Shown in pieces: positions 847-57,287 of a stretch of 64,000 bases of DNA. The DNA comes from Patescibacteria group bacterium. GTDB taxonomy: Bacteria > Patescibacteriota > Microgenomatia > UBA12405. Every line of letters begins with the position of its first letter. Within the stretch, counting starts at the first letter, position 1. A program made the translations under genes and the position numbers. The stretch covers positions 18,766 to 82,765 of the forward strand of contig JAHIPV010000013.1 of assembly GCA_018902845.1 (NCBI GenBank). The letters are read 5' to 3'. The notes beneath the pieces are model-generated. The model was not told the DNA's origin. It made no database searches and saw nothing but the letters and a program-made list of their open reading frames with translations.

Positions 847-3102
847 ATGAAAACACACAAGAAAGAAATAAAAATAGAAAACAAAACAATTACCATTGAA
901 AGCGGTAAACTAGCTCCTCAAGCCAACGCCTCTGTCACGGCCACTATGGGCAAAACAGTTGTTTTGGCCACGGTTGTTATGGGTTCGGTTGACGAGCACA
1001 AAGATTATTTTCCCCTTTCTGTTCAACTAGTAAACAGACTTTATGCCGGAGGCGTGGTAAAAGGCAGTCGTTGGATCAAAAGAGACATGTATGCTTCAGA
1101 TAATGACACTTTATCAGCCAGGATTATAGACAGAAGCATCAGACCTCTTTTTCCCCAAGGCTTCAAAAACGATATTCAAGTCGTTGTAACCGTTTTAAGC
1201 AATGACAAGGAAACTGATTTTGTTATTCCCGCTTTTATGGCAGTTTCTACTGCTCTTTTGATATCAGATATTCCATTCAACGGTCCGGTTTCAGCCATAA
1301 GAATTTTTAAAGACAAAGATAAGCTTCTCTCTTGTCCGTCTGTAATTCAACTAGACCAGTCGGATTTGGATCTAATAGTTTGTACTGGCCCCGCCGGTGT
1401 TAACATGATCGAGGCCGGTGCCAAAATTGTTGATAACAAAACCATGCTTGGCGCCATTAAACTTGCCAAAAATCTTGGTGAAAATATAAACAAGCAATTA
1501 GTAGAATTCGCCCAACCAATTGCCAAGAAAAAAGCCGAATTCATCCCAGTCTTACCTTCAGAAGACTTAATTAAGCAAATCACTCCTATTCTAAAAAAAG
1601 ATATAAATGATTTCTTTGACAATGGCGGAGATATCAATTCTTTTTCAGCTAAACAAAAAATTATTGACAAGGCCAAAGAAACTTATCTGGACAAAATCAA
1701 ATCAGGAGAAGTTAATGAAAATTTGCTTGTTCATGCAGTCGAGCATCTACTTGAAAAACAGCTTAGAGTAAATGTATTTAACGGTAAACGCTTCGATTCT
1801 CGTCAAGCAGATAAAATTAGGCCATTGGAGATTGACACCTCTATTTTGCCCTGTACTCACGGTTCCGCTATGTTTAAGCGTGGTTTGACCCAGGTTGTTA
1901 CCGTCAGTACCTTAAGTCCATTGTCGGAAAAACTCCACATGGAAGATTCCGGCGGTGAAGGTACAAAACGTTACATGCACTATTATTCAGCCATGCCCTT
2001 TTCAACCGGCCAAACCGGTAGAATTGGCCGTCCTGGTCGCAGAGAAGTTGGTCATGGAGCCTTGGCCGAAAAAGCTTTACTACCAGTCATACCCTCTGAG
2101 GAAGAATTTCCTTATACCATAATCTTAACCTCAGAAATAATGTCACAAAACGGATCTTCTTCTATGGCTTCCACCTGTGGCTCTACCATGTCATTGATGG
2201 ATGCTGGTGTTCCAATAAAAGATAAAGTTGCTGGAATTTCTATTGGAATGATTAGTAATGGAGATAAAAAATTCACTCTTTTAACAGACATTGCCGGAAT
2301 TGAAGACCATTTTGGTGATATGGATTTTAAGATTACCGGTACAAAAACAGGCATTACCGCTATTCAGCTTGATATCAAAAGACAAGGCTTAACAATGGAA
2401 ATGATCGAAAAAACCTTTGAAGCCAGTACAAAAGCCAGGCTTGAAATTCTAAAACAAATGGAAGCAGTTTTGTCAGAACCAAGAAAGGAGTTGTCTGTTT
2501 ATGCTCCCAAGGTTGCCATGCTCAAAATTCCAGAAGACAAAATTGGAGATGTTATTGGTTCAGCCGGTAAAACAATCAAAGGCTTAATGAAAAAATATGG
2601 CGTTCAAGTGGATATAGATGATGATGGTATTGCCTCTGTTTCTTCTGATTCTTTCGACAAAACCAACCAATGTATTAAGGAAATCGAGGCCATGATTAAA
2701 GAAGTTGAGATTGGCGAAGAATACGATGGCATAGTTACTCGAATAGAGGATTATGGTGCTTTTGTTGAATTTTTACCCGGAAGAGAAGCCTTATTGCATG
2801 TTTCTGAATTGAGCCAAGGTTTTGTTTCTGATCCAAACGCTTTAGTAAAAATTGGAGATAAAATTCATATTAAAATAAGCGGGTTTAATGATAATCATCA
2901 GATTAAACTATCAGCTCCCCAGTTTAAAGCAGCTCACCCAGGATCCAGCCAGGGATTAAGTCAGCCTCACGGCCGTTTTAGTGGAAGAACTATTCCTGAT
3001 CAACAATCAAAATTTTTTCCACCAACCAATAAATCCAATTTTAGGAAACCGCCCCTTCGGTCCAACACCAACCGCATTCAATACAAAAATAATAAGTATT
3101 AA
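847..3102 (+). CDS. pnp: Polynucleotide phosphorylase / polyribonucleotide nucleotidyltransferase
   Basis: 751 aa with two RNase PH-like domains, FGDMDFK-type motif, KH and S1 domains at the C-terminus. Conserved rpsO-pnp synteny. Confidence 0.95.
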   Translation: MKTHKKEIKIENKTITIESGKLAPQANASVTATMGKTVVLATVVMGSVDEHKDYFPLSVQLVNRLYAGGVVKGSRWIKRDMYASDNDTLSARIIDRSIRPLFPQGFKNDIQVVVTVLSNDKETDFVIPAFMAVSTALLISDIPFNGPVSAIRIFKDKDKLLSCPSVIQLDQSDLDLIVCTGPAGVNMIEAGAKIVDNKTMLGAIKLAKNLGENINKQLVEFAQPIAKKKAEFIPVLPSEDLIKQITPILKKDINDFFDNGGDINSFSAKQKIIDKAKETYLDKIKSGEVNENLLVHAVEHLLEKQLRVNVFNGKRFDSRQADKIRPLEIDTSILPCTHGSAMFKRGLTQVVTVSTLSPLSEKLHMEDSGGEGTKRYMHYYSAMPFSTGQTGRIGRPGRREVGHGALAEKALLPVIPSEEEFPYTIILTSEIMSQNGSSSMASTCGSTMSLMDAGVPIKDKVAGISIGMISNGDKKFTLLTDIAGIEDHFGDMDFKITGTKTGITAIQLDIKRQGLTMEMIEKTFEASTKARLEILKQMEAVLSEPRKELSVYAPKVAMLKIPEDKIGDVIGSAGKTIKGLMKKYGVQVDIDDDGIASVSSDSFDKTNQCIKEIEAMIKEVEIGEEYDGIVTRIEDYGAFVEFLPGREALLHVSELSQGFVSDPNALVKIGDKIHIKISGFNDNHQIKLSAPQFKAAHPGSSQGLSQPHGRFSGRTIPDQQSKFFPPTNKSNFRKPPLRSNTNRIQYKNNKY

Positions 3103-3103
3103 T

Positions 3104-3154
3104 GTCATCCCGAGCGTAGTCCTTTTGTCATCCCGAGCGTAGCCGAGGGATCTC
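3104..3154. repeat. Dispersed repeat family A, two tandem copies (gtcatcccgagcgtag.. x2) plus hairpin ctcgc-gaat-gcgag
   Basis: gtcatcccgagcgtagtccttttgtcatcccgagcgtagccgagggatctc; same core as copies at 359, 42227, 46392, 49318, 50457, 53293, 54450. Confidence 0.7.
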
Positions 3155-3182
3155 TCGCGAATGCGAGGTATCCGCCTCGTCT

Positions 3183-3210
3183 TTGACAAATCTATCCTGT
3201 AGTATATAAT
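3183..3210 (+). promoter_or_regulatory. Near-consensus sigma70 promoter TTGACA-N16-TATAAT, 6 nt upstream of ATG 3217 (leaderless arrangement)
   Basis: TTGACA 3183-3188, TATAAT 3205-3210, ATG at 3217. Confidence 0.5.
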
Positions 3211-3216
3211 ATTCCT

Positions 3217-3705
3217 ATGCCTACTGGAAAATTTAATGAAGGAAACTGTGTTTTTAGAGCCTTGGAAAATATTTATGAAAATGCGGGACACAACATGGAG
3301 CCAAGAAGTAGTATGCGAACTATCTTAATTCAGGTTTGTCAAAGAAATGTAGGCCCAAATGGCGGTGTCTCAGCGGGGAACGTTACAGTAGAACTTTCAG
3401 AACAAGGATTGACGGTTGGGCCGGTATATGTTCGAGAGTATAAACCCGAAAAACGAAAATGCAAAAAAACAATAGCCCTACAATTACGCCAAGATTTAGC
3501 CAAAGGAGCTCACTTGATGATTACACTAGTACACCCCAAAGGTCCAGTGGGACACGCAGAGCCATTATTTCCATCTGGTGGTCTACTGCCTAGAGATAAA
3601 AGAGAAACAATAAGAATGGCGGCCATGTCACTTAGAAAATATGGAGGTGAAGCACTTTCTTTTCGTCCAATCCAACCCGAAAAAGGAGAAAAGAAGAAAA
3701 GATAA
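3217..3705 (+). CDS. Hypothetical protein (162 aa, Gly/Pro/Arg/Lys-rich), slightly higher GC than surroundings
   Basis: Intact ORF preceded by a consensus promoter. No family recognised. Composition differs from flanking genes. Confidence 0.4.
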   Translation: MPTGKFNEGNCVFRALENIYENAGHNMEPRSSMRTILIQVCQRNVGPNGGVSAGNVTVELSEQGLTVGPVYVREYKPEKRKCKKTIALQLRQDLAKGAHLMITLVHPKGPVGHAEPLFPSGGLLPRDKRETIRMAAMSLRKYGGEALSFRPIQPEKGEKKKR

Positions 3706-3726
3706 AAATAAGCTATACTTTTCTTA

Positions 3727-4788
3727 ATGCCTACTACTAACTCCGAAATAACTCAAGCCATAGAAACACTAGTTGCCAAAACAAAAAGCATCAGGCTCCC
3801 CGACGAGTTACAGAACAAATTAAACGAAATTTTTTCTCACTTAAAAATTTCTTCCAAATCAGAAGACACTTTTTGGCAAAATTATCAAAAAACCTCCAAA
3901 TACATTGAGTGGATTATTGGCCTCCCTTGGTTTAAAGAATCTCAGGATATATTGGATCTTGATTATGCCAGAGAAAAACTTGATGAAAGCCATTACGGCC
4001 TTTCTGAAGTCAAAGAAAGAATACTGGAGCATATTTCTGTTTTGGCTTTGCAAAAAAACCGCCATCCCGATCAAAATCTTCGAGCCCCAATTTTACTTTT
4101 TGTCGGTTTGGTCGGTACAGGCAAAACCACCATGGCTAAGTCCATCGCCACTGTTTTTAACAGAAAATTAATCCGTATTCCCTTTGGAGGCCTTGGAGAT
4201 CCCCTTTACTTAAGGGGCCAATCGCGAGTTCATCCAGAAGCAGAACCAGGCCAAATCATAAAAGGATTAAGAAACGTTGGTGTCAAAAATCCGGTTATTC
4301 TTTTAGACGAAATCGACCGTGTTGCCGACGACGCCTTAAATACCATCATGGGGGTTTTGGTTGAGTTGTTGGATCCTGAACAAAATAGCCGTTTTTCAGA
4401 TCATTTTATTGAATATCCCTTTGATTTATCTCAGGTCTTTTTTGTTGCCACTTGCAATAACACAAAAAGAATTGCCACTGCCGTTTTGGACAGATTAGAA
4501 GTAATTCAAATGCCTTCTTACACTGATGAAGAAAAAATTGCCATTGGTCGCGATTATCTCTTCCCATCTGCCCTTAAAGAATCTGGTCTGAGTAATGATG
4601 AATTGCAAATAAAAGATGCTATCTGGCCTCAAGTGGTTCGCCCTCTTGGCTTTGATGCCGGAGTCAGAACCCTAAAAAGAAACATAGAACGCCTTTGCCA
4701 AAAAACCGCTCGTCTTATATTTGAAGGTAAAATTAAGTCGTTGGTAGTAGATGAATCTAATGTCAAGGAATTCCTACCCAAATGGTAA
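3727..4788 (+). CDS. Lon-family AAA+ ATPase module only (no N-terminal LAN domain, no C-terminal S16 peptidase domain)
   Basis: Matches Lon from the ILDEDHYGL(E/S)xVKERILE segment through Walker A (GLVGTGKTT), Walker B (ILLDEIDR), VLELLDPEQNSRFSDHF, sensor-1 (VATCNN), LDRLEVIQMPSYTDEEK and the GVR sensor-2. ORF ends at the Lon ATPase/protease boundary. Confidence 0.8.
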   Translation: MPTTNSEITQAIETLVAKTKSIRLPDELQNKLNEIFSHLKISSKSEDTFWQNYQKTSKYIEWIIGLPWFKESQDILDLDYAREKLDESHYGLSEVKERILEHISVLALQKNRHPDQNLRAPILLFVGLVGTGKTTMAKSIATVFNRKLIRIPFGGLGDPLYLRGQSRVHPEAEPGQIIKGLRNVGVKNPVILLDEIDRVADDALNTIMGVLVELLDPEQNSRFSDHFIEYPFDLSQVFFVATCNNTKRIATAVLDRLEVIQMPSYTDEEKIAIGRDYLFPSALKESGLSNDELQIKDAIWPQVVRPLGFDAGVRTLKRNIERLCQKTARLIFEGKIKSLVVDESNVKEFLPKW

Positions 4789-4795
4789 AAAATCT

Positions 4796-5368
4796 ATGTC
4801 CGCCAAAGCTCAAAAACTAAAATATATAGAAAAGCTGATTTCACAATGCCAAAAATGCCAGCTTTACAAAACTGCCACCAACCACGTTCCCGGGTTTGGC
4901 AATCCGGAAGCTGAAATAGTTTTTATTGGTGAAGCTCCTGGCTATCACGAGGATCAGCAGGGTTTGCCTTTTGTTGGCAATTCGGGAAAACTTCTAGATA
5001 AATTATTAGCCAAAATCGGTTTAGTCAGACAAGATGTTTTTGTTTGTAACATTTTAAAACATCGACCGCCCAACAATCGCGATCCGCAACCGCTGGAAAT
5101 TAAAACTTGCACTCCTTTTTTAAAAGCTCAACTGCAAATTATCCGGCCAAAGGTTATAATAACTCTAGGCAGATTTGCCATGAATTACTTTTTTCCGGGC
5201 GAATATATCAGTAAAATAAAAGGCCAGATTAAAAAAATTGATTGGAATAAACTCAAATTAACCATTATTCCTGTTTATCATCCATCAGCCGGTCTCAGAA
5301 ACGGTGCCATGCTCCAGGCCTTAGAGCAGGATTTTCAAACCATTGGCAAATTTTTAGGAAAAATATAA
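4796..5368 (+). CDS. Uracil-DNA glycosylase, family 4
   Basis: CQKCQLY.. N-terminal Cys cluster, GEAPGYHEDQQGLPFVGNSGKLLDKLL, HRPPNNRDP and VYHPSAGL motifs typical of family-4 UDG. Start taken at ATG 4796 to avoid overlap with the upstream gene. Confidence 0.85.
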   Translation: MSAKAQKLKYIEKLISQCQKCQLYKTATNHVPGFGNPEAEIVFIGEAPGYHEDQQGLPFVGNSGKLLDKLLAKIGLVRQDVFVCNILKHRPPNNRDPQPLEIKTCTPFLKAQLQIIRPKVIITLGRFAMNYFFPGEYISKIKGQIKKIDWNKLKLTIIPVYHPSAGLRNGAMLQALEQDFQTIGKFLGKI

Positions 5369-5381
5369 TATTATTAATCAT

Positions 5382-7160
5382 ATGCAAAATATAAAAAATA
5401 CAATAAACACAAATACACAGCCTAATCAAAGGCCACAAACCAAATTTACTCAAACTTTTAGACCAAAAACAGTTCAGAACTCTGATGCACTCAGAATTAC
5501 TTCTCTGGGTGGTTTTGGCGATGTCACTCAAAATATGTTTGTCTACGAATACGCCCCCAGGGGCGATTTTAAAAAAAGTCAAATAATTATCGTTGATTGT
5601 GGAGTTGGTTTCCCCGAAGAAGACGAGTTTGGTGTAGATCTCCAAATTCCTGATACCAAATATCTGGAAGATAAAAAAAACAGGATACTTGGTATTTTTA
5701 TTACTCACGGTCACGAAGATCATATTGGCGCTCTCCGTTTTATTCTTCCCGTCCTTGGAAAAAACATCCCTATTTACGCTCCAAGATTGGCAACCGCGTT
5801 TATACAGGCTAGATTACAAGAACATGAAATTAGGGCCAAAATACAAATCTATCAAGACAATATGCCCATGAAAGCTGGCCCCTTTTTAGTCGATCCGATT
5901 AGAGTTACTCACTCGATTCCCGATACTTTTCATTTTGCCATTAGTACTCCCATCGGTCTCATTTACCATGGATCCGATTTTAAATTCGACCTTTTTCCGC
6001 TAGATGGCAAGTATTCCGATCTTCGTCATATCGCCCGTGTTGGCAACAACAGCAACGTTCTGTGTCTTTTGTCGGATTGTCTTGGTGCTGATCACCCGGG
6101 TTATTCGCCATCCGAAAGAACCATAGCACAAAACTTTGAAAATGAGATCAAGACCGCCAAGGGTAGGGTATTTGTCACTGCTATCTCAAGCAACATTGTT
6201 CGTTGGGGTCAAGCTATAGAATATGGCAAAAGAGCCGGTCGTAAAATAGTTACCGTTGGTTTTTCTGTTGATAGGGCCATTAGTGTGGCACAAGAGCTTG
6301 GTTATATCAAACTTAACAAGTCAGATATTGTCCCCATAAACAGAATCAAAAATTTTCCCGAGAATCAACTAATCTTTTTGGCTGCTGGATTCGCTGGTCA
6401 ATCCAATTCTGCCTTAAGTAAGATGGTTATGGGAAAGCACAGAATAAAAATTAAATCCAGTGACAAAATTATTTTTTCTGCCCCTGATTATATCCCTGGC
6501 ACCTCCAGTGCTATTTTAAAGATAGTTGACCACCTTTCTAAAATGGGAGCAGAAGTAGTTTATGGGGAGGGAGAAAATATGCATGTTTCTGGTCACGGCT
6601 ATCAAAAAGAATATGCCCTGTTAGCAACCCTTCTCAACTCTAGATACTTGCTTCCAATTGGTGGAAATTACCGCCATGTCAGGGCCTATCAAGGCATGGC
6701 TCTAGATATCGGTTATTCCGCCGATCAATTTATTTCGCCAGATTCAGATGCATCGGTCACTTTTTACGCCAACGGAAAATACGATACCAACCATCACATT
6801 TCTTCAAGAAAAATACTCATCGACGGATTCGGCGTCGGCGATGTTGGAACTACAGTTCTTCGGGATAGACGGCTTTTGGCAGAAGACGGCATGCTTTCTG
6901 TGGTGCTTCTAGTTGATACAAAATCAGCCAGAATGATCAAAGAGCCTTTAGTTTTAAGCAAAGGCTTTGTCTTTATGAAAGAAAACACTCCTCTTATAAA
7001 TCAGCTTAAGCAGGAAGTAAAAAAGAAATTCTCGCAGGTAGCTGGCGATCCCATCAATCTGGATTATGTTCGCGAACAAATCCAAGGCCATTTGGAACAA
7101 ATTGTCTACAAAAAAACCGGCCGTCAGCCCATGATCCTGCCCTTGCTAGTTGAGGTATAA
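5382..7160 (+). CDS. rnj: Ribonuclease J (metallo-beta-lactamase / beta-CASP RNase)
   Basis: ITHGHEDHIGAL motif, beta-CASP region and C-terminal domain. 592 aa. Confidence 0.9.
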   Translation: MQNIKNTINTNTQPNQRPQTKFTQTFRPKTVQNSDALRITSLGGFGDVTQNMFVYEYAPRGDFKKSQIIIVDCGVGFPEEDEFGVDLQIPDTKYLEDKKNRILGIFITHGHEDHIGALRFILPVLGKNIPIYAPRLATAFIQARLQEHEIRAKIQIYQDNMPMKAGPFLVDPIRVTHSIPDTFHFAISTPIGLIYHGSDFKFDLFPLDGKYSDLRHIARVGNNSNVLCLLSDCLGADHPGYSPSERTIAQNFENEIKTAKGRVFVTAISSNIVRWGQAIEYGKRAGRKIVTVGFSVDRAISVAQELGYIKLNKSDIVPINRIKNFPENQLIFLAAGFAGQSNSALSKMVMGKHRIKIKSSDKIIFSAPDYIPGTSSAILKIVDHLSKMGAEVVYGEGENMHVSGHGYQKEYALLATLLNSRYLLPIGGNYRHVRAYQGMALDIGYSADQFISPDSDASVTFYANGKYDTNHHISSRKILIDGFGVGDVGTTVLRDRRLLAEDGMLSVVLLVDTKSARMIKEPLVLSKGFVFMKENTPLINQLKQEVKKKFSQVAGDPINLDYVREQIQGHLEQIVYKKTGRQPMILPLLVEV

Positions 7161-7210: not shown

Positions 7211-7528
7211 ATGCTGTCAACACAAAGTACCAAAAAACAAACAGATTACCTGCAAGTTCGTCTTGATTCTAAGTTAAAACATGAAGTTACTGATATCCTT
7301 TACCAGCTCGGCATGACACCTTCTCAAGCGGTAAAAATTTTGTTTAGCCAAATTAGCATGCAAAAAGCCCTCCCTCTTGATATTTCAATCCCAACTGAAA
7401 GAATAGAAATACTTTCAGACAAAACAGTAAAAGAAGTGGGGCAAGCTTTAAAAGAAATAGGAGAAGGCGAATATACAGAGATTGACATGAGTGATAAGAA
7501 ACAAGTTAAGAAATTTTTTGGTCTTTAA
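7211..7528 (+). CDS. Type II antitoxin, RelB/DinJ family
   Basis: 105 aa. LQVRLDSKLKHEVTDILYQLGMTPSQAVKILFSQISMQKALPLDISIP matches the DinJ/RelB ribbon-helix-helix antitoxin pattern. 1-nt overlap with the downstream toxin. Confidence 0.7.
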   Translation: MLSTQSTKKQTDYLQVRLDSKLKHEVTDILYQLGMTPSQAVKILFSQISMQKALPLDISIPTERIEILSDKTVKEVGQALKEIGEGEYTEIDMSDKKQVKKFFGL

Positions 7529-7830
7529 TGTTGACATTAAAACATAATCTTCGATTTACAAAGACCTATATCAGGAAATACAAAAAACTAACTAAAAACA
7601 ATAAAAAACTCAAGAAACAAATTTCTAAAACCTTAGAATTACTGTCCTCTGATCCCCGAAATCCAAGCCTAAAATCACACAAAGTATATGCAAAAGAATT
7701 TGGTTTAAGATTGAGTTCTTCGGTCTCAGCAGATCTAAGAGTAATCTGGGATTATGATCAAAACAGTCAATTGATTATTTTGATACTAACCATCGGTACT
7801 CACTCAGGCAAAAATAGGGTCTACAATTAG
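7528..7830 (+). CDS. Type II toxin, RelE/YafQ family mRNA interferase
   Basis: 100 aa with a basic N-terminus. C-terminal ..LRVIWDYDQNSQLIILILTIGTHS resembles the RelE/YafQ ..wrliY..d....l.l.rtGtHs signature. Confidence 0.7.
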   Translation: MLTLKHNLRFTKTYIRKYKKLTKNNKKLKKQISKTLELLSSDPRNPSLKSHKVYAKEFGLRLSSSVSADLRVIWDYDQNSQLIILILTIGTHSGKNRVYN

Positions 7831-15194: not shown

Positions 15195-17249
15195 ATGAAA
15201 CAAAAGAATACAAACAGGTTTTGGCTTCTTAATATCAAAGATACACATCTCTCGGTTTCTTTAGTTTTTGTTTCAGAAGTCATGTCCGATGGAATTCTCT
15301 CAAGCCATAAGCAGGAGTGGAAAGAAGAAGATTTCATAAATTCTGTCGATATTTGCGTTTCTGATTGTTTAAGGCAGGATTCTTCCCCAGAAATTGACCA
15401 AACAGACTCGATCGCCTTTATTCTTCCACCTGACTGGGTCGCCAGCGACGGAAAGATAATCGATGATAAACAAAAATTAATCAAATCTCTTTGTAAAAAG
15501 ATGGACCTTAAACCAATGGGTTTTCTGGCAAGCAACGAGGCTATAGTTGAAGAATTAAATCATAAAGAAGGATCTCCTGTTAGCCTAATTTTAATCAACA
15601 TAGAAAACAATATTGCTGACTTTTCTATAGTTTATTCGGGAAAAATAAAAAACAATTTTAAAAAAACAATTTTAGAAAAATCATCTTTGCCTGCTTTGAT
15701 TGAAAATAGCCTTAGAGAATTAAATTTTGATTTTGTTCTGCCACCACAAATTCTGCTTTGGGGAGATAAGGATTTTGATTTTAGCCAAGATCTCAAAAAT
15801 TATGCCTGGACAGATAAAGAAGGAAAAAATATCTTTACCCATTTTCCCAAAATTGATTTTTACGACACTGAACAAATAAATCAATTTTTTATAAAAATCA
15901 TTACAAAACAAATTGGGTTAGACCTAGAAACCGTCAAAACCCCAAAAAACGACACTTTAAGCCAGCCTCGTTTTTCCGATTTAAAAGAAGTTGATCCCCT
16001 AAGCCTAGGTTTTGACAAAGACCACCATTCTTTACCTCCAACAAAAGAATTTTCTGAAAAAATCAAAAAACCAAAGTTTAAGTTAAAACTTTGGTTTCCT
16101 ACTTTTCCAAAATTAAAATTTCCAAAAATTTTCTCACGTTTTTCCGTTTTATTATTATTTTTCTTTTTTACAACAATTTTTCTTTTTTGGCTTTTTTCTT
16201 ATAAAAGTGTCTTGACCGTTTTTGTTACACCATATAAGTTTGATCAAAAATTGCCGTCTACTCTTGACACCTCGGCAAAAGATTTTGATCCAAATGAAAA
16301 AATTATCCCTGCCCAAGAAATAGAGATAAAATTTTCCACTTCTGCCACCGTAAAAACCACTGGACAGAAATTAGTAGGGGAAAGGGCTAGGGGGGAATTG
16401 CTTGTTTTTAACAAAACCGATCAGGACAAAACTCTACCGGCAGGTTCTATTTTAGTGGACGCCAATCAGCTGGAATTTAAACTATTAGATGATGTCAAAG
16501 TATCGTCCAGCAGTCCGGACCTCGATCAGGGAATAATAACTCTTGGTCAGGGCAAAGTAATGGCCTCTGCCGTTGATATCGGTCCGGCTGGTAATTTAAA
16601 CAAAGATACTCTTTTAACATTCAAAGAATTTCCTTCAAGCGATTTAGTTGTCAAGACAAATCAAGTTTTTGCCGGAGGAAGTAGTCGGCAGGTTAGTAGT
16701 GTTGGCAGTGAAGATAGAAAAGAGGTAAAGCAAAAAATAGACGAAAAAGTTCAAGAAATTTTACAACAAAAGAAAGACGAAAGCATCGATAAGCTTAACA
16801 ATTTACTGCCCGGAACCACATTTATAGATCAAGAAAGGATAAGTTACGATCGTGAAATAGGCGAAGAGACCGACGAACTATCGGCCTCGGTTGATATCAC
16901 CATGCATATTTTTTCAATAAATGCAAAAGTAAAAAACGACATTATAAAATACATGCTTCAGTCAAATACCGATCCGTCTACCCTTGATCTGGAAAATAGC
17001 CAATTTCAATTTGATTACAAAGATAAAAATCTTTTATTGACTGGGACATCACTGCCTAAAATAAACACTACAAACTTAGCAAAAAAATTAGTTTTAAAAA
17101 ATCCAAATAAAATTACAGAAACACTTAAGTCAGAATCCACTCGTGTATATGATTTTAATCTGCAATCCAAGCCAGCCATTTTTAAAAATTTTCCTATATT
17201 ACCAGCAAGATCAGATATGATCTATTTAGAAATTAAAACCGAAGAATAA
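15195..17249 (+). CDS. Hypothetical bitopic membrane protein (684 aa: cytoplasmic N-domain, TM at about aa 320-345, large extracytoplasmic C-domain)
   Basis: One strongly hydrophobic segment (LLLFFFFTTIFLFWLF). N-domain is weakly reminiscent of the FtsA/PilM fold. Immediately followed by a sortase gene. Confidence 0.6.
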   Translation: MKQKNTNRFWLLNIKDTHLSVSLVFVSEVMSDGILSSHKQEWKEEDFINSVDICVSDCLRQDSSPEIDQTDSIAFILPPDWVASDGKIIDDKQKLIKSLCKKMDLKPMGFLASNEAIVEELNHKEGSPVSLILINIENNIADFSIVYSGKIKNNFKKTILEKSSLPALIENSLRELNFDFVLPPQILLWGDKDFDFSQDLKNYAWTDKEGKNIFTHFPKIDFYDTEQINQFFIKIITKQIGLDLETVKTPKNDTLSQPRFSDLKEVDPLSLGFDKDHHSLPPTKEFSEKIKKPKFKLKLWFPTFPKLKFPKIFSRFSVLLLFFFFTTIFLFWLFSYKSVLTVFVTPYKFDQKLPSTLDTSAKDFDPNEKIIPAQEIEIKFSTSATVKTTGQKLVGERARGELLVFNKTDQDKTLPAGSILVDANQLEFKLLDDVKVSSSSPDLDQGIITLGQGKVMASAVDIGPAGNLNKDTLLTFKEFPSSDLVVKTNQVFAGGSSRQVSSVGSEDRKEVKQKIDEKVQEILQQKKDESIDKLNNLLPGTTFIDQERISYDREIGEETDELSASVDITMHIFSINAKVKNDIIKYMLQSNTDPSTLDLENSQFQFDYKDKNLLLTGTSLPKINTTNLAKKLVLKNPNKITETLKSESTRVYDFNLQSKPAIFKNFPILPARSDMIYLEIKTEE

Positions 17250-17250
17250 C

Positions 17251-17994
17251 TTGTCATATCTATACGTTAAGAAAATTACTCCCAAGAGTCAAAAACGGAA
17301 AAAAAAACATCACCCCAAAATAACAAAAAAAATGTTATTAGCTATTTCTTTTTTTATTTTTGGTTCTTTATTGCTTTTTTCAGTTATATTTCCAATACTT
17401 AATTTTCAGTTAAAATACTCCTCTCGTTTTAACCCGATTAGTTCCCCTCTTTCGGCAAAATTTTATAACAAAAGTTCTAGCATTTTGGGAGAGGTAAACA
17501 CTGATTACACTCAACTTAATAATTGGTTCACAAAAAATTCCAACAGCAAAGATATTGATTCCGCACCTGAACATGGTAATCCTAGCTCTTATGAACTTTC
17601 TATACCAATCCTTAAAATTGAAAATGCTAATGTGGTTGTTGGTGGAACTGACTTGAAAAAAAGTCTAATACAGTATCCACAAACAGCCTTACCCGGTCAA
17701 ATCGGTAATGCCGTAATTTTTGGCCATTCGGTCTTACCTCAATTTTTTAATCCAAAATCATATGTAACCATTTTTTCAACTCTTTTTAAGCTAAAGCAGG
17801 GAGACGAAATTTATGCTACTTTTGATAACATAAAATACAAATATTTAGTTGAAGAAATGTTTGAAATTCTACCGACAGATCTTTCCATATTAGAACAAAG
17901 ATTTGACGGTCGTTATCTAACTATTGTGACTTGTAGTCCGCCAGGAACCTATATTCGTCGCTTAATAATCAAGGCCAAAATAGTAGATATTTAA
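17251..17994 (+). CDS. Sortase-family transpeptidase
   Basis: N-terminal TM anchor, catalytic His region (IGNAVIFGHS) and TLxTC motif (LTIVTCSPPG). Confidence 0.8.
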   Translation: MSYLYVKKITPKSQKRKKKHHPKITKKMLLAISFFIFGSLLLFSVIFPILNFQLKYSSRFNPISSPLSAKFYNKSSSILGEVNTDYTQLNNWFTKNSNSKDIDSAPEHGNPSSYELSIPILKIENANVVVGGTDLKKSLIQYPQTALPGQIGNAVIFGHSVLPQFFNPKSYVTIFSTLFKLKQGDEIYATFDNIKYKYLVEEMFEILPTDLSILEQRFDGRYLTIVTCSPPGTYIRRLIIKAKIVDI

Positions 17995-49317: not shown

Positions 49318-49356
49318 CGTCATCCCGAGCGCGGTCGAGGGATCCCGTGGGGAATT
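49318..49356. repeat. Dispersed repeat family A copy (cgtcatcccgagcgcggtcgagggatcccgtggggaatt), followed by AT-heptamer tract and a family-B copy
   Basis: Composite 167-bp rpoA-rplQ spacer. Confidence 0.7.
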
Positions 49357-54449: not shown

Positions 54450-54588
54450 GTCATCCCGAGCGCAGTCGAGGGATCTCCCCGGAATTTAAACTTCCATTTG
54501 GGATTCTTCTCCGCCAACTGGCGGATCAGAATGACGCCTTTCTCCCACCCGTCATCCTGAGTGAGTTTTACGACCGAAGGATCCCATC
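54450..54588. repeat. Repeat family A cluster: forward copy, inverted half-copy (ggcggatcagaatgacgcc) and second forward copy, with ccgccaactggcgg hairpin
   Basis: gtcatcccgagcgcagtcgagggatctcc ... ccgccaactggcggatcagaatgacg ... cgtcatcctgagtgagttttacgaccgaaggatcccatc. Confidence 0.7.
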
Positions 54589-55501
54589 AATATTCTTCCC
54601 ACTCAATGTTCTTTTTCGCCCATTCAAGTAATTGCAAAGTATCCGCAAATCGATCCTCACTTTGCGCCACCACACTAATCAATCTGTGTCCTTCTATGTT
54701 TAACAATCCCGCAAAACATCCACCAGCCTCCGGTGTCCACCCGGTCTTCAGCCCTTCAACTTCTGGCACTGTTTCCAGTAATTCATTTGTATTAAGCAGT
54801 AAGTGTTCCGTGCCATTCCTGCTTGTTATTTTTAATTCTTTAATTTTTACTGTTTCTGTCACTGTTTTATTTTTAATTGCCAATCGTGCCACCTGAGCTA
54901 AATCATAAACAGTTGAATAGTGATTTTCGTCATGTATGCCGTCGTAATTAACAAAATTACTATCCTCTAATCCATTTTTTTTCAAAATTCCATTCATTTC
55001 TTTAACAAAACCATCCACTCCATTTTTGTGTTGTTTAGCCAAAACAAAAGCCGCATCATTGGCAGAATGAACCAACAAAGCCTTTACCAGATCTCTTATG
55101 CTTAATTTTTCTCCCACCTTAAGCTCCATTACCTTTCCATTTTCGTATTCTGTATCTATCTCTATAATTTCATCCAGGGGATAAATATTTAAAGCGGTTA
55201 GTGCTGTGATTAACTTTGTAGTGGAAGCCGGATAAATTCTTTCTTTTTCTTTTTTGCTTATCAAAATAGTATTTGTTTCTGTATCTAGGAGAATAAAAGC
55301 TTTAGCACTCAAAACAGGGGTAAAATTGGTTTTATTTTTTGTTACTGGTATTAATGGGTGTTGGTAATTGGCAAAGACGTTATTTTCTTTTCTTGTTTGT
55401 ATTGCCCTGCGGTCTAGATTAGAAACAATTAAATTAAACCACAAAAAAAATCCCAGTCCGCCTCCTAAAAAAATCAAAATCCTACTACGCTTTTTTCGCA
55501 T
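54587..55501 (-). CDS. D-alanyl-D-alanine carboxypeptidase (S11 family, PBP5/6-like)
   Basis: SxxK (ASTTK), SxN (HSANDAA), KTG (KTGWT) motifs, N-terminal TM. Confidence 0.85.
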   Translation of the reverse strand: MRKKRSRILIFLGGGLGFFLWFNLIVSNLDRRAIQTRKENNVFANYQHPLIPVTKNKTNFTPVLSAKAFILLDTETNTILISKKEKERIYPASTTKLITALTALNIYPLDEIIEIDTEYENGKVMELKVGEKLSIRDLVKALLVHSANDAAFVLAKQHKNGVDGFVKEMNGILKKNGLEDSNFVNYDGIHDENHYSTVYDLAQVARLAIKNKTVTETVKIKELKITSRNGTEHLLLNTNELLETVPEVEGLKTGWTPEAGGCFAGLLNIEGHRLISVVAQSEDRFADTLQLLEWAKKNIEWEEY

Positions 55502-57287
55502 AATTACCCTTTTTATGCTTAACCAATCTCACAAAGTCGATTAATTTCATCATTACTGATCTTGTTCGCAAACCGGCATTAAAGACAATTTTTTCGTTCT
55601 TCAAAAAGTTTTTATCCACATATACGGGCACATTAAACAAATTTCCAAACGGTGGTACAGCCCCAATTTTTACACCACTAATCTCTCCCACTTCATTTTC
55701 ACTCGCCATCCTTAAATTTTTGATCCCAAACAATTTTTTAAAAATAGTACTATCTAATTTTTCGGCTGCCGACAATACCACTAATATAGCTTTCTCGTCA
55801 GCAAACATCAGCAACGCTTTAGCACCCTGTTCTAGCTTTGTTCCTCTAGCATCCGCCGCCTCTTGTGATGTTCTTACTTCCTCATGTTTAATTTCTTCAA
55901 ACTCAACTTCTTCTTTTTTTAATAATTCAATCAAATTATCATACAAGTTTTTTTTCTTTTTTTTACGTAAATTTGATAATCTGATATCTATTCTTTCCAT
56001 GTCCCGTGGATAAAGAGTTGCTTGTCTGATATTGTCCAAGCCCAAAATATTTTGCGTAATTCTTTCTAGCCCTATACAAAATCCACCCTCTGGTGGCATA
56101 CCATATTTAAAAGCCTGTAAATAGGGGATTTCAAAATCCTTTGGATCAGCCCCCATCTTTTTAATATTCTTCACCAGTACGTCGTATTGGTGTATTCTCT
56201 GTCCTCCTGTGATCCATTCCACTCCACACCCAATCAAGTCAAAGCTTAAAGTTTCTTTGGGATTTTTAGGATTTTGATATGTATACCATGGTCTTTTTTT
56301 GGTGGGAAAATGGCTTATAAACACCATATCGCTTCCATGTTCTTCTTTAGACCATTTACAAATTCCCCTTTCTCCTTCAGGATCCATGTCCGGCTCACCT
56401 CTGATATCTCGCTTGGTTCTTTCAAAAATTATTTCTTGTGCTTCTGATAATTTTATAACCGGTGTTTTTTTGCAAGTTTCAGGAATTGTCATTCCATATT
56501 CTTCCAAAATATCGGCATGTTCTTGTTTTATTTTATTAAAAATCGCCTTAACCAGATTATCGGCCATTTCAACCACATCAAGCCAGCTGTCTATAAATCC
56601 AAACTCAACATCCAGGCCAACATATTCAGTCAAATGTCTGGTTGTTACACTTGGCTCAGCTCTGTAAGCGTGCGACAGAGTAAAAACCCTTTCAAAAATA
56701 GACACCATAATTTGTTTATAAAACTGCGGACTTTGAGCCATAAATGCTTTTTGGTCAAAATAATCAACAGCAAAAACCTGCGATCCGCCTTCTGTGGCGG
56801 TTGCTACAATAGTTGGCGCCTGAAATTCAACAAAATCATTTTTGTTCATGTATTCCCGAAAAGCCTTTACTATAGTTGCCTGTACTCTAAAAATATCAGC
56901 GGTTTTTTTATTTCTCAAAGACGCGTTTCTGTAATCAAGCATAACCGGTAGTGATACGTCCAGTTTGGGTTTATAAATGTCAAAAGGTAATTCGCCACTT
57001 TCAGACAAAACTTTAATTTTTTCCACTTCTATTTCTATTTTTCCGGTTGCTATTTTTTCATTAAAATTTTTCTCTTGTCTGTTTCTGACAGTTCCTGTGA
57101 TTTCCACTACATTTTCTCCATGCAATTTCCCCAGATCCTTACTACCAACCAATTGAATATAGCCCGACCTGTCTCTCAAATCGGCAAAAGATAATTTACC
57201 GTAACTTCTCACACTATTTATCCACCCACAAAGTCTCACTTTTTCCCCAACACACCCCAAAGTTTTAGATATAACCGTCCTCTTCAT
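55485..57287 (-). CDS. aspS: Aspartyl-tRNA synthetase (archaeal/AspRS2-like class IIb) fused to a C-terminal YbaK/ProX-type aminoacyl-tRNA deacylase domain
   Basis: N-terminal OB anticodon domain, class II motifs (FRAEPS.., GGQRIHQYDVL, YLQAFKYGMPPEGGFCIGLER, LYPRDMERI), then about 135 aa ..TSQEAADARGTKLEQGAKALLMFADEKAILVVLSAAEKLD..LRMASENEV.EISGVKIGAVPPFG matching the YbaK deacylase fold. Confidence 0.8.
   Translation of the reverse strand: MKRTVISKTLGCVGEKVRLCGWINSVRSYGKLSFADLRDRSGYIQLVGSKDLGKLHGENVVEITGTVRNRQEKNFNEKIATGKIEIEVEKIKVLSESGELPFDIYKPKLDVSLPVMLDYRNASLRNKKTADIFRVQATIVKAFREYMNKNDFVEFQAPTIVATATEGGSQVFAVDYFDQKAFMAQSPQFYKQIMVSIFERVFTLSHAYRAEPSVTTRHLTEYVGLDVEFGFIDSWLDVVEMADNLVKAIFNKIKQEHADILEEYGMTIPETCKKTPVIKLSEAQEIIFERTKRDIRGEPDMDPEGERGICKWSKEEHGSDMVFISHFPTKKRPWYTYQNPKNPKETLSFDLIGCGVEWITGGQRIHQYDVLVKNIKKMGADPKDFEIPYLQAFKYGMPPEGGFCIGLERITQNILGLDNIRQATLYPRDMERIDIRLSNLRKKKKKNLYDNLIELLKKEEVEFEEIKHEEVRTSQEAADARGTKLEQGAKALLMFADEKAILVVLSAAEKLDSTIFKKLFGIKNLRMASENEVGEISGVKIGAVPPFGNLFNVPVYVDKNFLKNEKIVFNAGLRTRSVMMKLIDFVRLVKHKKGNYAKKA

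Follow-up and report, generated by a model that had tools for sequence, protein, structure and literature searches.

We analyzed a 64,000-nucleotide stretch of DNA from a Patescibacteria group bacterium (contig JAHIPV010000013.1, positions 18,766 to 82,765 of the forward strand; hereafter the window, on which the coordinates of all open reading frames, or ORFs, are counted), centering on the ORF at 3727-4788. Our analysis identified this ORF as a LonA-type AAA+ module, composed of a three-helix bundle, an alpha/beta subdomain and a lid, with neither the N-terminal substrate domain nor the S16 protease domain of Lon, and showed that it belongs to a selected family under strong purifying selection and is not a broken lon gene. 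The reading we favor, with somewhat better than even confidence, is that the encoded protein is an ATP-driven, non-proteolytic ring ATPase (remodeler or chaperone-like) with a rebuilt substrate channel. The best explanation for the origin of the family is that it is old and vertically inherited in Patescibacteria (the Candidate Phyla Radiation, CPR), being derived from LonA through the loss of both ends.

A Lon-type AAA+ module that stands alone

The identity of the protein was established from the ORF listing, Pfam, matches to solved structures in the PDB, and AlphaFold2 (AF2) modeling with Foldseek comparison. A Pfam scan returned solely AAA (PF00004, E = 4e-17, residues 123-261) and Lon_lid (PF22667, E = 4e-10, residues 284-337), with no match to either LON_substr_bdg (PF02190) or Lon_C (PF05362). 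The NCBIfam model for endopeptidase La (TIGR00763) was covered over positions 252-568 of 795 with 325 bits against a cutoff of 608, and NF008053 gave 245 bits against a cutoff of 891; the protein lies below the curated cutoffs for full-length endopeptidase La and fails the tests that define a Lon protease. The best solved structures were LonA of B. subtilis (3m6a, E = 2e-78) and LonA of M. taiwanensis, with further matches to the E. coli and Y. pestis proteins and human LONP1. The resemblance greatly exceeds what chance would give. In the structure-sequence alignment, the 353 amino acids correspond to Lon residues ~247-578 of 793, so that the protein begins at the N-terminal three-helix bundle and stops where the ATPase and protease of Lon join. 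The AF2 monomer model (predicted local distance difference test, pLDDT, 85.5; predicted template modeling score, pTM, 0.79) superposes over its full length on the LonA and LONP1 AAA+ modules, with template modeling (TM) scores of 0.80-0.86. A preliminary description of this DNA had proposed that the ORF is the Lon AAA+ stretch ending at the ATPase/peptidase junction, and Pfam, NCBIfam, the PDB alignment and the AF2 superposition all confirm it. The gene and the elements of its product, all on the plus strand, are as follows:

3727-4788, plus strand: gene of the protease-less LonA-type AAA+ ATPase, 353 amino acids, ATG to TAA (stop at 4786-4788)
3739-3921, plus strand: three-helix bundle, residues 5-65, equivalent to the NTD-3H subdomain of LonA (Lon ~247-310)
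4105-4131, plus strand: Walker A (P-loop) GLVGTGKTT, residues 127-135, with K133 and T134 invariant
4210-4251, plus strand: pore-loop-1 segment LRGQSRVHPEAEPG, residues 162-175, in place of LonA RGHRRTY(I/V)GAMPG
4294-4317, plus strand: Walker B VILLDEID, residues 190-197, with D194 and E195 invariant
4318-4353, plus strand: pore-loop-2 segment RVADDALNTIMG, residues 198-209
4447-4500, plus strand: sensor-1 ATCNN (N244/N245) and trans-acting arginine finger (R256 in LDRLE), all invariant
4642-4674, plus strand: clade-specific P-L-G-F-D turn, residues 306-310, in place of LonA x-Y-T-R-E, followed by sensor-2 AGVRTL with R314 invariant

In the AF2 model the three-helix bundle consists of helices 5-20, 26-42 and 46-65. 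This region has F49, W50 and Q54 invariant in the clade and includes the Lon-type Y59..P67-W68.

An artefact or a decaying remnant, that is, a frameshifted, misassembled or pseudogenised full-length lon, would be the trivial explanation for such a gene, and all that speaks for it is the prior view of Lon as one polypeptide that includes a protease domain. We consider it scarcely credible, because the identical protein, flanked by the same neighbors, was found on 16 contigs from independent samples, so that independent assemblies give the same sequence, and because hundreds of homologues at 50-92% identity keep a constant length (348-358 amino acids). In addition, 134 of the 353 alignment columns are at least 98% conserved in the Microgenomates set (121 sequences), no protease-like or N-domain-like sequence is present in any frame on either side, and the start of the next gene lies only 7 nucleotides past the stop. 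The 16 identical contigs and the homologues of the same length thus exclude the hidden full-length lon that a check for a frameshift or assembly error might have uncovered.

The family itself is large. All of the 120 best database matches have 338-363 amino acids, 69-92% identity and only AAA and Lon_lid domains, those with names coming from Shapirobacteria, Woesebacteria, Microgenomates and Patescibacteria. In a set with one genome per species, 80 loci from Shapiro-, Woese-, Gottesman-, Beckwith-, Roizman- and Levybacteria were recovered at 51-81% identity, and a search of representatives of 50%-identity clusters added short forms at 39-55% identity. When one of these distant short members (P0170, 39% identical) was used as the query, its 120 best matches all had 342-507 amino acids and none had a protease domain; Dojkabacteria and Nomurabacteria were among those named. 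Taken together, more than 240 homologues with 340-400 amino acids and 39-92% identity across Microgenomates, Dojkabacteria and Parcubacteria include none with a protease domain, and the longer clade members (453-669 amino acids) showed no extra Pfam domain, their extensions being low-complexity only. The stand-alone module that had been proposed is therefore genuine, as its homologues carry the same AAA and Lon_lid content only. In a neighbor-joining tree of Lon AAA+ modules, built with no outgroup, the short forms make up one clade (146 of 200 bootstraps). Synteny was also considered as a sign of domain loss in situ and gave none: the nearest full-length LonA representatives (P0176 and P0169) sit in unrelated contexts, so gene order does not show that the loss happened in place.

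We then considered whether the missing domains are encoded close by. Custom hidden Markov models (HMMs) of the protease domain and the N domain of Lon were built from 55 full-length Lon representatives and run against all stop-to-stop ORFs of the loci, with flanks reaching up to 10 kb to either side of the gene (~2.1 Mb in total). The window and 91 related loci (1.39 Mb) gave no match with either model, and in 72 further loci the matches were restricted to the three positive controls (L096-L098, loci around full-length Lon genes), which the same HMMs detected. Overall, no S16 or Lon-N domain was found within ~6-10 kb of the AAA+ gene in ~160 related loci. The Lon Ser/Lys catalytic motifs were likewise absent from the six frames of the window, and the 37 window ORFs scanned against Pfam contain no ClpP, HslV or S16 peptidase, being housekeeping genes (rpoBC, ribosomal proteins, EF-G/Tu, SecY and aminoacyl-tRNA synthetases). 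The earlier claim that no S16 peptidase domain is encoded nearby on either strand is borne out by both the six-frame motif scan and the HMMs.

Motor residues, pore loops and the task of the ring

Residues were compared between 29 non-redundant clade members and 68 full-length LonA representatives. K133, T134, D194, E195, N244, R256 and R314 do not vary within the family and are common to LonA; they comprise every residue that ATP binding and hydrolysis in a ring call for. The 60 residues between the Walker A lysine (K133) and the Walker B aspartate (D194) match the LonA spacing of 60 (PMC9569914). The pore loops differ. In pore-loop-1, the LonA sequence G-H-R-R-T-Y-(I/V)-G has become G-x-S-(R/K)-x-x-P-(D/E/N) in the clade; in the protein of the window the Tyr is H169, the Ile/Val is P170, the Gly is E171 and the Met is E173. 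The Tyr is present in 100% of the 68 LonA representatives, and the 29 clade members have N, S, T, Y, H or E at this position. In pore-loop-2, which is predicted by AF2 to be helical from residue 201, A203 takes the place of the LonA aromatic (W431 in M. taiwanensis LonA, MtaLonA), and the aromatic-x-Gly-x-Pro pattern has also lost its loop-shaping Gly and Pro. In query numbering, the LonA-invariant H165, R166, T168, Y169, G171, G205 and P207 have all been lost in the clade. The alignment of both loops to B. subtilis and M. taiwanensis LonA is gap-free and anchored by RG...PG and DEID...LDPEQN. In MtaLonA, Y397 and I398 of pore-loop-1 and W431 of pore-loop-2 grip the translocating substrate (PMC8519571). 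The clade has also gained features of its own, including E173 (in an A-E-P-G motif), K179, M208, Y230, W300 and the P-L-G-(F/Y)-(D/E) turn. The family has thus preserved the ATPase machinery, while it has lost the classical apparatus for gripping polypeptides, the N-terminal recognition domain and the protease. By inference, the protein is not a Lon protease, and a processive Lon-type unfoldase also seems unlikely.

A comparison with known systems places the protein close to LonA. As in 3m6a, 7fd4, E. coli Lon and LONP1, it has a three-helix bundle, an A-type AAA+ module and a Lon lid, with 33-38% structure-based identity; its Walker B, sensor-1, arginine finger and sensor-2 residues are identical to theirs, and the pre-sensor-1 hairpin motif DH..(D/E)xPxDLS is conserved. 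Unlike LonA, it has no LON_substr_bdg N domain, no long coiled-coil helix and no S16 Ser-Lys protease domain, it carries a variable-P-(E/D/N) sequence where pore-loop-1 of LonA has Y-(I/V)-G and lacks the aromatic and Gly/Pro of pore-loop-2, and it has GL(V/A/Q)G for GPPG at the lead-in to Walker A and P-L-G-(F/Y)-(D/E) for x-Y-T-R-E before sensor-2. An engineered AAA+ fragment of E. coli LonA (6n2i, 344 amino acids) has nearly the same boundaries (query residues 13-350, TM 0.82/0.86); unlike such laboratory truncations, which have wild-type pore loops, the CPR protein is natural, selected and remodeled in its loops.

Turning to the other Lon subfamilies, LonC has a degenerate ATPase, and the CPR family is its reverse, the ATPase being intact and the protease absent. 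In LonB a membrane anchor interrupts the AAA+ module, and in LonBA Walker A and Walker B are separated by 82 residues; neither trait is seen in the CPR protein. LonB, LonBA and LonC resemble it in belonging to the same Lon AAA+ lineage and in lacking the N-terminal globular domain of LonA (PMC9569914), but they retain the protease domain, and all Lons (subfamilies A, B, C and BA) are stated to contain both ATPase and protease domains (PMC9569914). Among more distant relatives, the CPR protein is predicted to resemble ClpX and HslU as an AAA+ ring ATPase encoded apart from any peptidase, which in principle could either hand substrates to a protease or work on its own. ClpX and HslU differ from it in keeping an aromatic-hydrophobic-Gly pore loop and docking elements for ClpP or HslV (the IGF loop and the C-terminal tail), whereas neither a convincing docking element nor, in the ~160 loci, a linked peptidase was found for the CPR protein.

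As a separate observation, ~35 of the best 150 cluster representatives (including P0121-P0134) carry Lon-type AAA+ modules in tandem, two or three per protein, with a single S16 protease domain after them. These proteins are 889-1675 amino acids long and have no Lon N domain, and the two with names come from Dependentiae and Babeliales. To our knowledge, such multi-ring Lon proteases have not been described.

Under the reading we favor, the protein would assemble a Lon-like hexameric ring, since the invariant trans-acting arginine finger makes sense only in an oligomer. The ring would burn ATP to remodel a protein client without degrading it, acting as a natural "chaperone-only" Lon, and its contacts with this client would be made by a rebuilt axial loop, acidic and with a proline (S-R-x-x-P-[E/D/N]-A-E-P-G), and by a crown of three-helix bundles in place of the classical aromatic paddle. 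Several points weigh against this proposal. Isolated LonA AAA+ fragments are generally poor oligomers, since the protease ring aids assembly. Approximately half of the close Microgenomates relatives still have a Tyr at the pore-loop-1 position, and these Tyr-retaining relatives may have some threading ability. Finally, the conserved neighbors of the gene, described below, all encode nucleic-acid enzymes, and the client may be something other than a misfolded protein.

The preliminary description had concluded that the module would act as an unfoldase or chaperone or else pair with a protease encoded elsewhere. Read strictly, the first of these means a conventional stand-alone chaperone of the unfoldase or disaggregase type, which threads its substrate and then releases it. 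The intact ATPase machinery and the Lon-like fold agree with this, as do the Tyr kept in part of the Microgenomates subfamily and the groESL genes that adjoin the gene in Roizmanbacteria; moreover, Lon has a reported protease-independent chaperone activity. However, the aromatic position of pore-loop-1 is hypervariable in the clade (N/S/T/Y/H/E), its hydrophobic partner is Pro, its Gly is Asp or Glu, the aromatic of pore-loop-2 is Ala, and both the N-terminal substrate-recognition domain and the gate helix are absent. We therefore regard a threading chaperone as unlikely, and the unfoldase part of the earlier conclusion is weakened by the loss in the clade of the residues with which LonA grips its substrate.

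A second alternative is a split Lon, in which the AAA+ ring feeds a separately encoded peptidase, either an S16-only protein or ClpP. Three observations fit it: the protein ends exactly at the linker between the Lon ATPase and protease; its P-L-G-[F/Y] turn superficially resembles the [LIV]-G-[FL] motif with which ClpX, ClpA and ClpC dock on ClpP; and a survey of CPR genomes recorded ClpP in 1327 of them but ClpX in no more than 33, and HslV in no genome at all (Meheust 2019, Supplementary Data 1). The same survey found partners of the ClpC/ClpB type in 1355 genomes, so that ClpP is not orphaned. Another point against a split Lon is the position of the turn in the AF2 model, where helices 297-307 and 312-332 flank it and L307-G308-F309 sit in a 4-residue turn before the sensor-2 helix, which would put LGF beside the nucleotide pocket and not on a long docking loop. 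Furthermore, no peptidase gene was linked to the AAA+ gene in the ~160 loci or among the 37 Pfam-scanned ORFs of the window, the translocating pore-loop residues that protease feeding needs are not conserved, and just one family in the published CPR protein-family table contains Lon_C. A split Lon thus seems quite unlikely.

That single Lon family (K01338) is reported in 911 CPR genomes as "equally distributed"; it also holds full-length Lon, only 56% of its members having the full architecture. Where a CPR genome carries the annotation K01338, "ATP-dependent Lon protease", working Lon proteolysis is probably absent. The databases contain thousands of sequences of the short family, named "AAA family ATPase" by NCBI and "ATP-dependent Lon protease" by JGI, and full-text literature searches turned up no account of a natural Lon without a protease, whether in CPR or in other organisms; the family has been sequenced already but apparently neither recognized nor characterized. 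Lon is regarded as a universal single chain that combines ATPase and protease, and a large bacterial radiation keeps the motor only, with its gripping residues dismantled. The family is thereby a natural separation-of-function variant for the long-discussed protease-independent role of Lon, and it poses the question of what a Lon AAA+ ring does without aromatic pore loops. Because its members are small (~350 amino acids), soluble-looking and highly conserved, they should be easy to express and test.

Gene neighborhood of the AAA+ ATPase

In the window, the AAA+ gene has the following neighbors:

470-739: rpsO, upstream of pnp
847-3102, plus strand: pnp, polynucleotide phosphorylase (PNPase), the conserved upstream neighbor, with Pfam domains in related loci
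4796-5368, plus strand: family-4 uracil-DNA glycosylase (UDG; TIGR00758, 208 bits against a cutoff of 125)
5382-7160, plus strand: rnj, RNase J (Pfam RNase_J_b_CASP and RNase_J_C), the conserved downstream neighbor

The ATG of the UDG gene at 4796 comes 7 nucleotides after the AAA+ stop, and an alternative ATG at 4751 would give a 38-nucleotide overlap.

Across the related loci, including those of Dojkabacteria, the conserved order is rpsO-pnp-[variable slot]-AAA-[udg]-rnj-[proS]-ftsK. Thus pnp lies within three ORFs upstream in 52 of 65 Microgenomates loci and 38 of 43 Parcubacteria-type metagenome loci, and rnj lies within three ORFs downstream in 62 of 82 and 48 of 57, respectively. The UDG gene is found within three ORFs downstream in 22 of 82 Microgenomates loci and 47 of 57 Parcubacteria-type loci, and directly adjacent in 12 of 82 and 43 of 57. 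Median gaps in Microgenomates are 38 nucleotides between pnp and the AAA+ gene and 18 nucleotides between the latter and rnj or udg. When all neighbors within three ORFs were clustered, the recurrent ones were pnp, rpsO, rnj, udg, ftsK, proS and a helix-turn-helix (HTH) protein, and no others. Adjacency to the UDG gene recurs in distant CPR lineages (L011, L092-L094 and L099). Given the conserved order across CPR loci, the arrangement in the window is the one ancestral to CPR, and UDG is a recurrent neighbor. The preliminary description was right in calling the next gene a UDG, as TIGR00758 matches; its qualification of that gene as unrelated does not hold, given the recurrent adjacency.

The gene order raises a third alternative, namely that the protein is an accessory of nucleic-acid metabolism that works with UDG, PNPase and RNase J, for example by stripping off or recycling enzymes held tightly on DNA or RNA, or by organizing an RNA-decay complex. 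What speaks for it is synteny only: rpsO-pnp-AAA-udg-rnj-ftsK is shared, with gaps like those of an operon, by Microgenomates, Parcubacteria and Dojkabacteria, UDG is directly adjacent in most Parcubacteria-type loci, and the AAA-UDG pair, with overlapping stop and start codons, persists in the rearranged contexts of L099 and L011. However, nusA-infB-rpsO-pnp and rnj-ftsK are ancient housekeeping orders, and in small genomes that rearrange slowly a persistent order does not have to reflect a common function; the conserved order may simply be old housekeeping synteny. In addition, UDG is missing near the AAA+ gene in ~73% of Microgenomates loci, and the context is wholly different in L100 and in Roizmanbacteria (L084, L086 and L091), where the AAA+ gene lies outside the pnp-rnj cluster and is divergent beside groES-groEL. 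The mildly acidic protein (isoelectric point, pI, 6.15) and its acidic axial loop are also unfavorable for threading nucleic acid. On this evidence, we hold a nucleic-acid accessory role to be improbable.

A further extension of the same idea, to which we give only a slim chance, is that the CPR "mini-Lon" is a Lon-derived motor repurposed from protein quality control to be an ATP-dependent partner of UDG, PNPase and RNase J. Conceivable examples of such a role are the freeing of glycosylase that stays bound to its product at abasic sites and the remodeling of a complex for RNA decay. If this were true, CPR would be without Lon proteolysis and, with HslV absent and ClpX nearly so, would depend on FtsH and ClpC-ClpP for ATP-dependent proteolysis in the cytosol. 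A role as the ATPase of a defense system was rejected, as PADLOC gave only partial matches at the level of the P-loop (DolB, 33 bits over residues 81-153; IetA; TRIP13) and the context is housekeeping.

The pnp-AAA slot and other observations

The slot between pnp and the AAA+ gene holds two further features in this strain:

3183-3210, plus strand: putative sigma-70 promoter, TTGACA-16 nucleotides-TATAAT (12 of 12 consensus positions, a match in sequence only)
3217-3705, plus strand: orf162, a strain-specific ORFan of 162 amino acids, pI 9.9

The preliminary description had suggested orf162 as a partner of the AAA+ protein. This was not borne out, since it has no homologue outside its own strain: a search of 5.8 billion proteins returned nothing but its own entry (hypothetical protein KKC08_01065, Patescibacteria group bacterium), and it is confined to L001-L006, which are the same strain, and absent from all ~80 other Microgenomates loci. 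In those other loci pnp mostly abuts the AAA+ gene directly, and the slot elsewhere holds unrelated small genes; the upstream ORFs of the AAA+ gene in Microgenomates are heterogeneous. No match to orf162 was found in Pfam, NCBIfam or PADLOC. Two other explanations for the slot were discarded. First, orf162 is not a remnant of a Lon N domain, as the Lon-N HMM gave no match even at E <= 10. Second, the 624-nucleotide spacer does not appear to hold a structured RNA: Rfam at gathering thresholds gave 0 matches over the whole window, the single match on 3000-3800 at E <= 1 was a spurious long non-coding RNA, ARAGORN found no tRNA or tmRNA in the 64 kb, and the codon usage of orf162 is coding-like.

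The sigma-70 consensus match ends 6 nucleotides before the ATG of orf162. This candidate promoter could drive orf162-AAA-udg-rnj in this strain, and orf162 may be translated from a leaderless or near-leaderless mRNA that runs into AAA-udg-rnj. Heat-shock control was considered and rejected, as the window contains no CIRCE element (TTAGCACTC-N9-GAGTGCTAA, allowing up to 3 mismatches).

In the Parcubacteria-type subclade (L102-L165), a protein of ~295-345 amino acids is encoded between pnp and the AAA+ gene (e.g., L102 2549-3463 and L107 5055-5981). Its features are a CxxC...CxxC zinc ribbon at the N terminus and a transmembrane helix, and the gap to the AAA+ start is -23 to +12 nucleotides, often overlapping. 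This zinc-ribbon membrane protein, conserved upstream in that subclade only and absent from the window, could be a lineage-specific membrane adaptor.

Directly after the pnp stop, the 16-mer GTCATCCCGAGCGTAG occurs as a tandem pair with a 23-nucleotide period (3104-3142). Near-copies are present at 49319-49334 and 54450-54465, which gives 4 matches at up to 2 mismatches against 0 expected, and the sequence looks like a small intergenic repeat resembling repetitive extragenic palindromic (REP) elements.

Downstream of rnj, a RelB/YafQ-type toxin-antitoxin pair at 7211-7830 separates rnj from proS in this strain only; in relatives, rnj is followed by proS or ftsK. Further away, the region 15195-17994 contains an ORF of 684 amino acids with no Pfam match, followed after a 1-nucleotide gap by a sortase, and the two may be a pair of sortase and surface-protein substrate typical of CPR. 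On the minus strand, 55485-57287 encodes a class II tRNA synthetase of the aspartyl/asparaginyl type (tRNA-synt_2 and an anticodon OB fold), to which a C-terminal YbaK/ProX-type tRNA_edit domain is joined at residues 468-587 in an unusual fusion. Finally, it should be noted that many contigs with this CPR gene cluster (L012, L018, L024-L027, L045, L063 and others) are titled "uncultured Gammaproteobacteria", "Candidatus Methanoperedens" or "Clostridia bacterium"; such titles of metagenome-assembled genome records are evidently placeholder or wrong taxonomy for CPR contigs.

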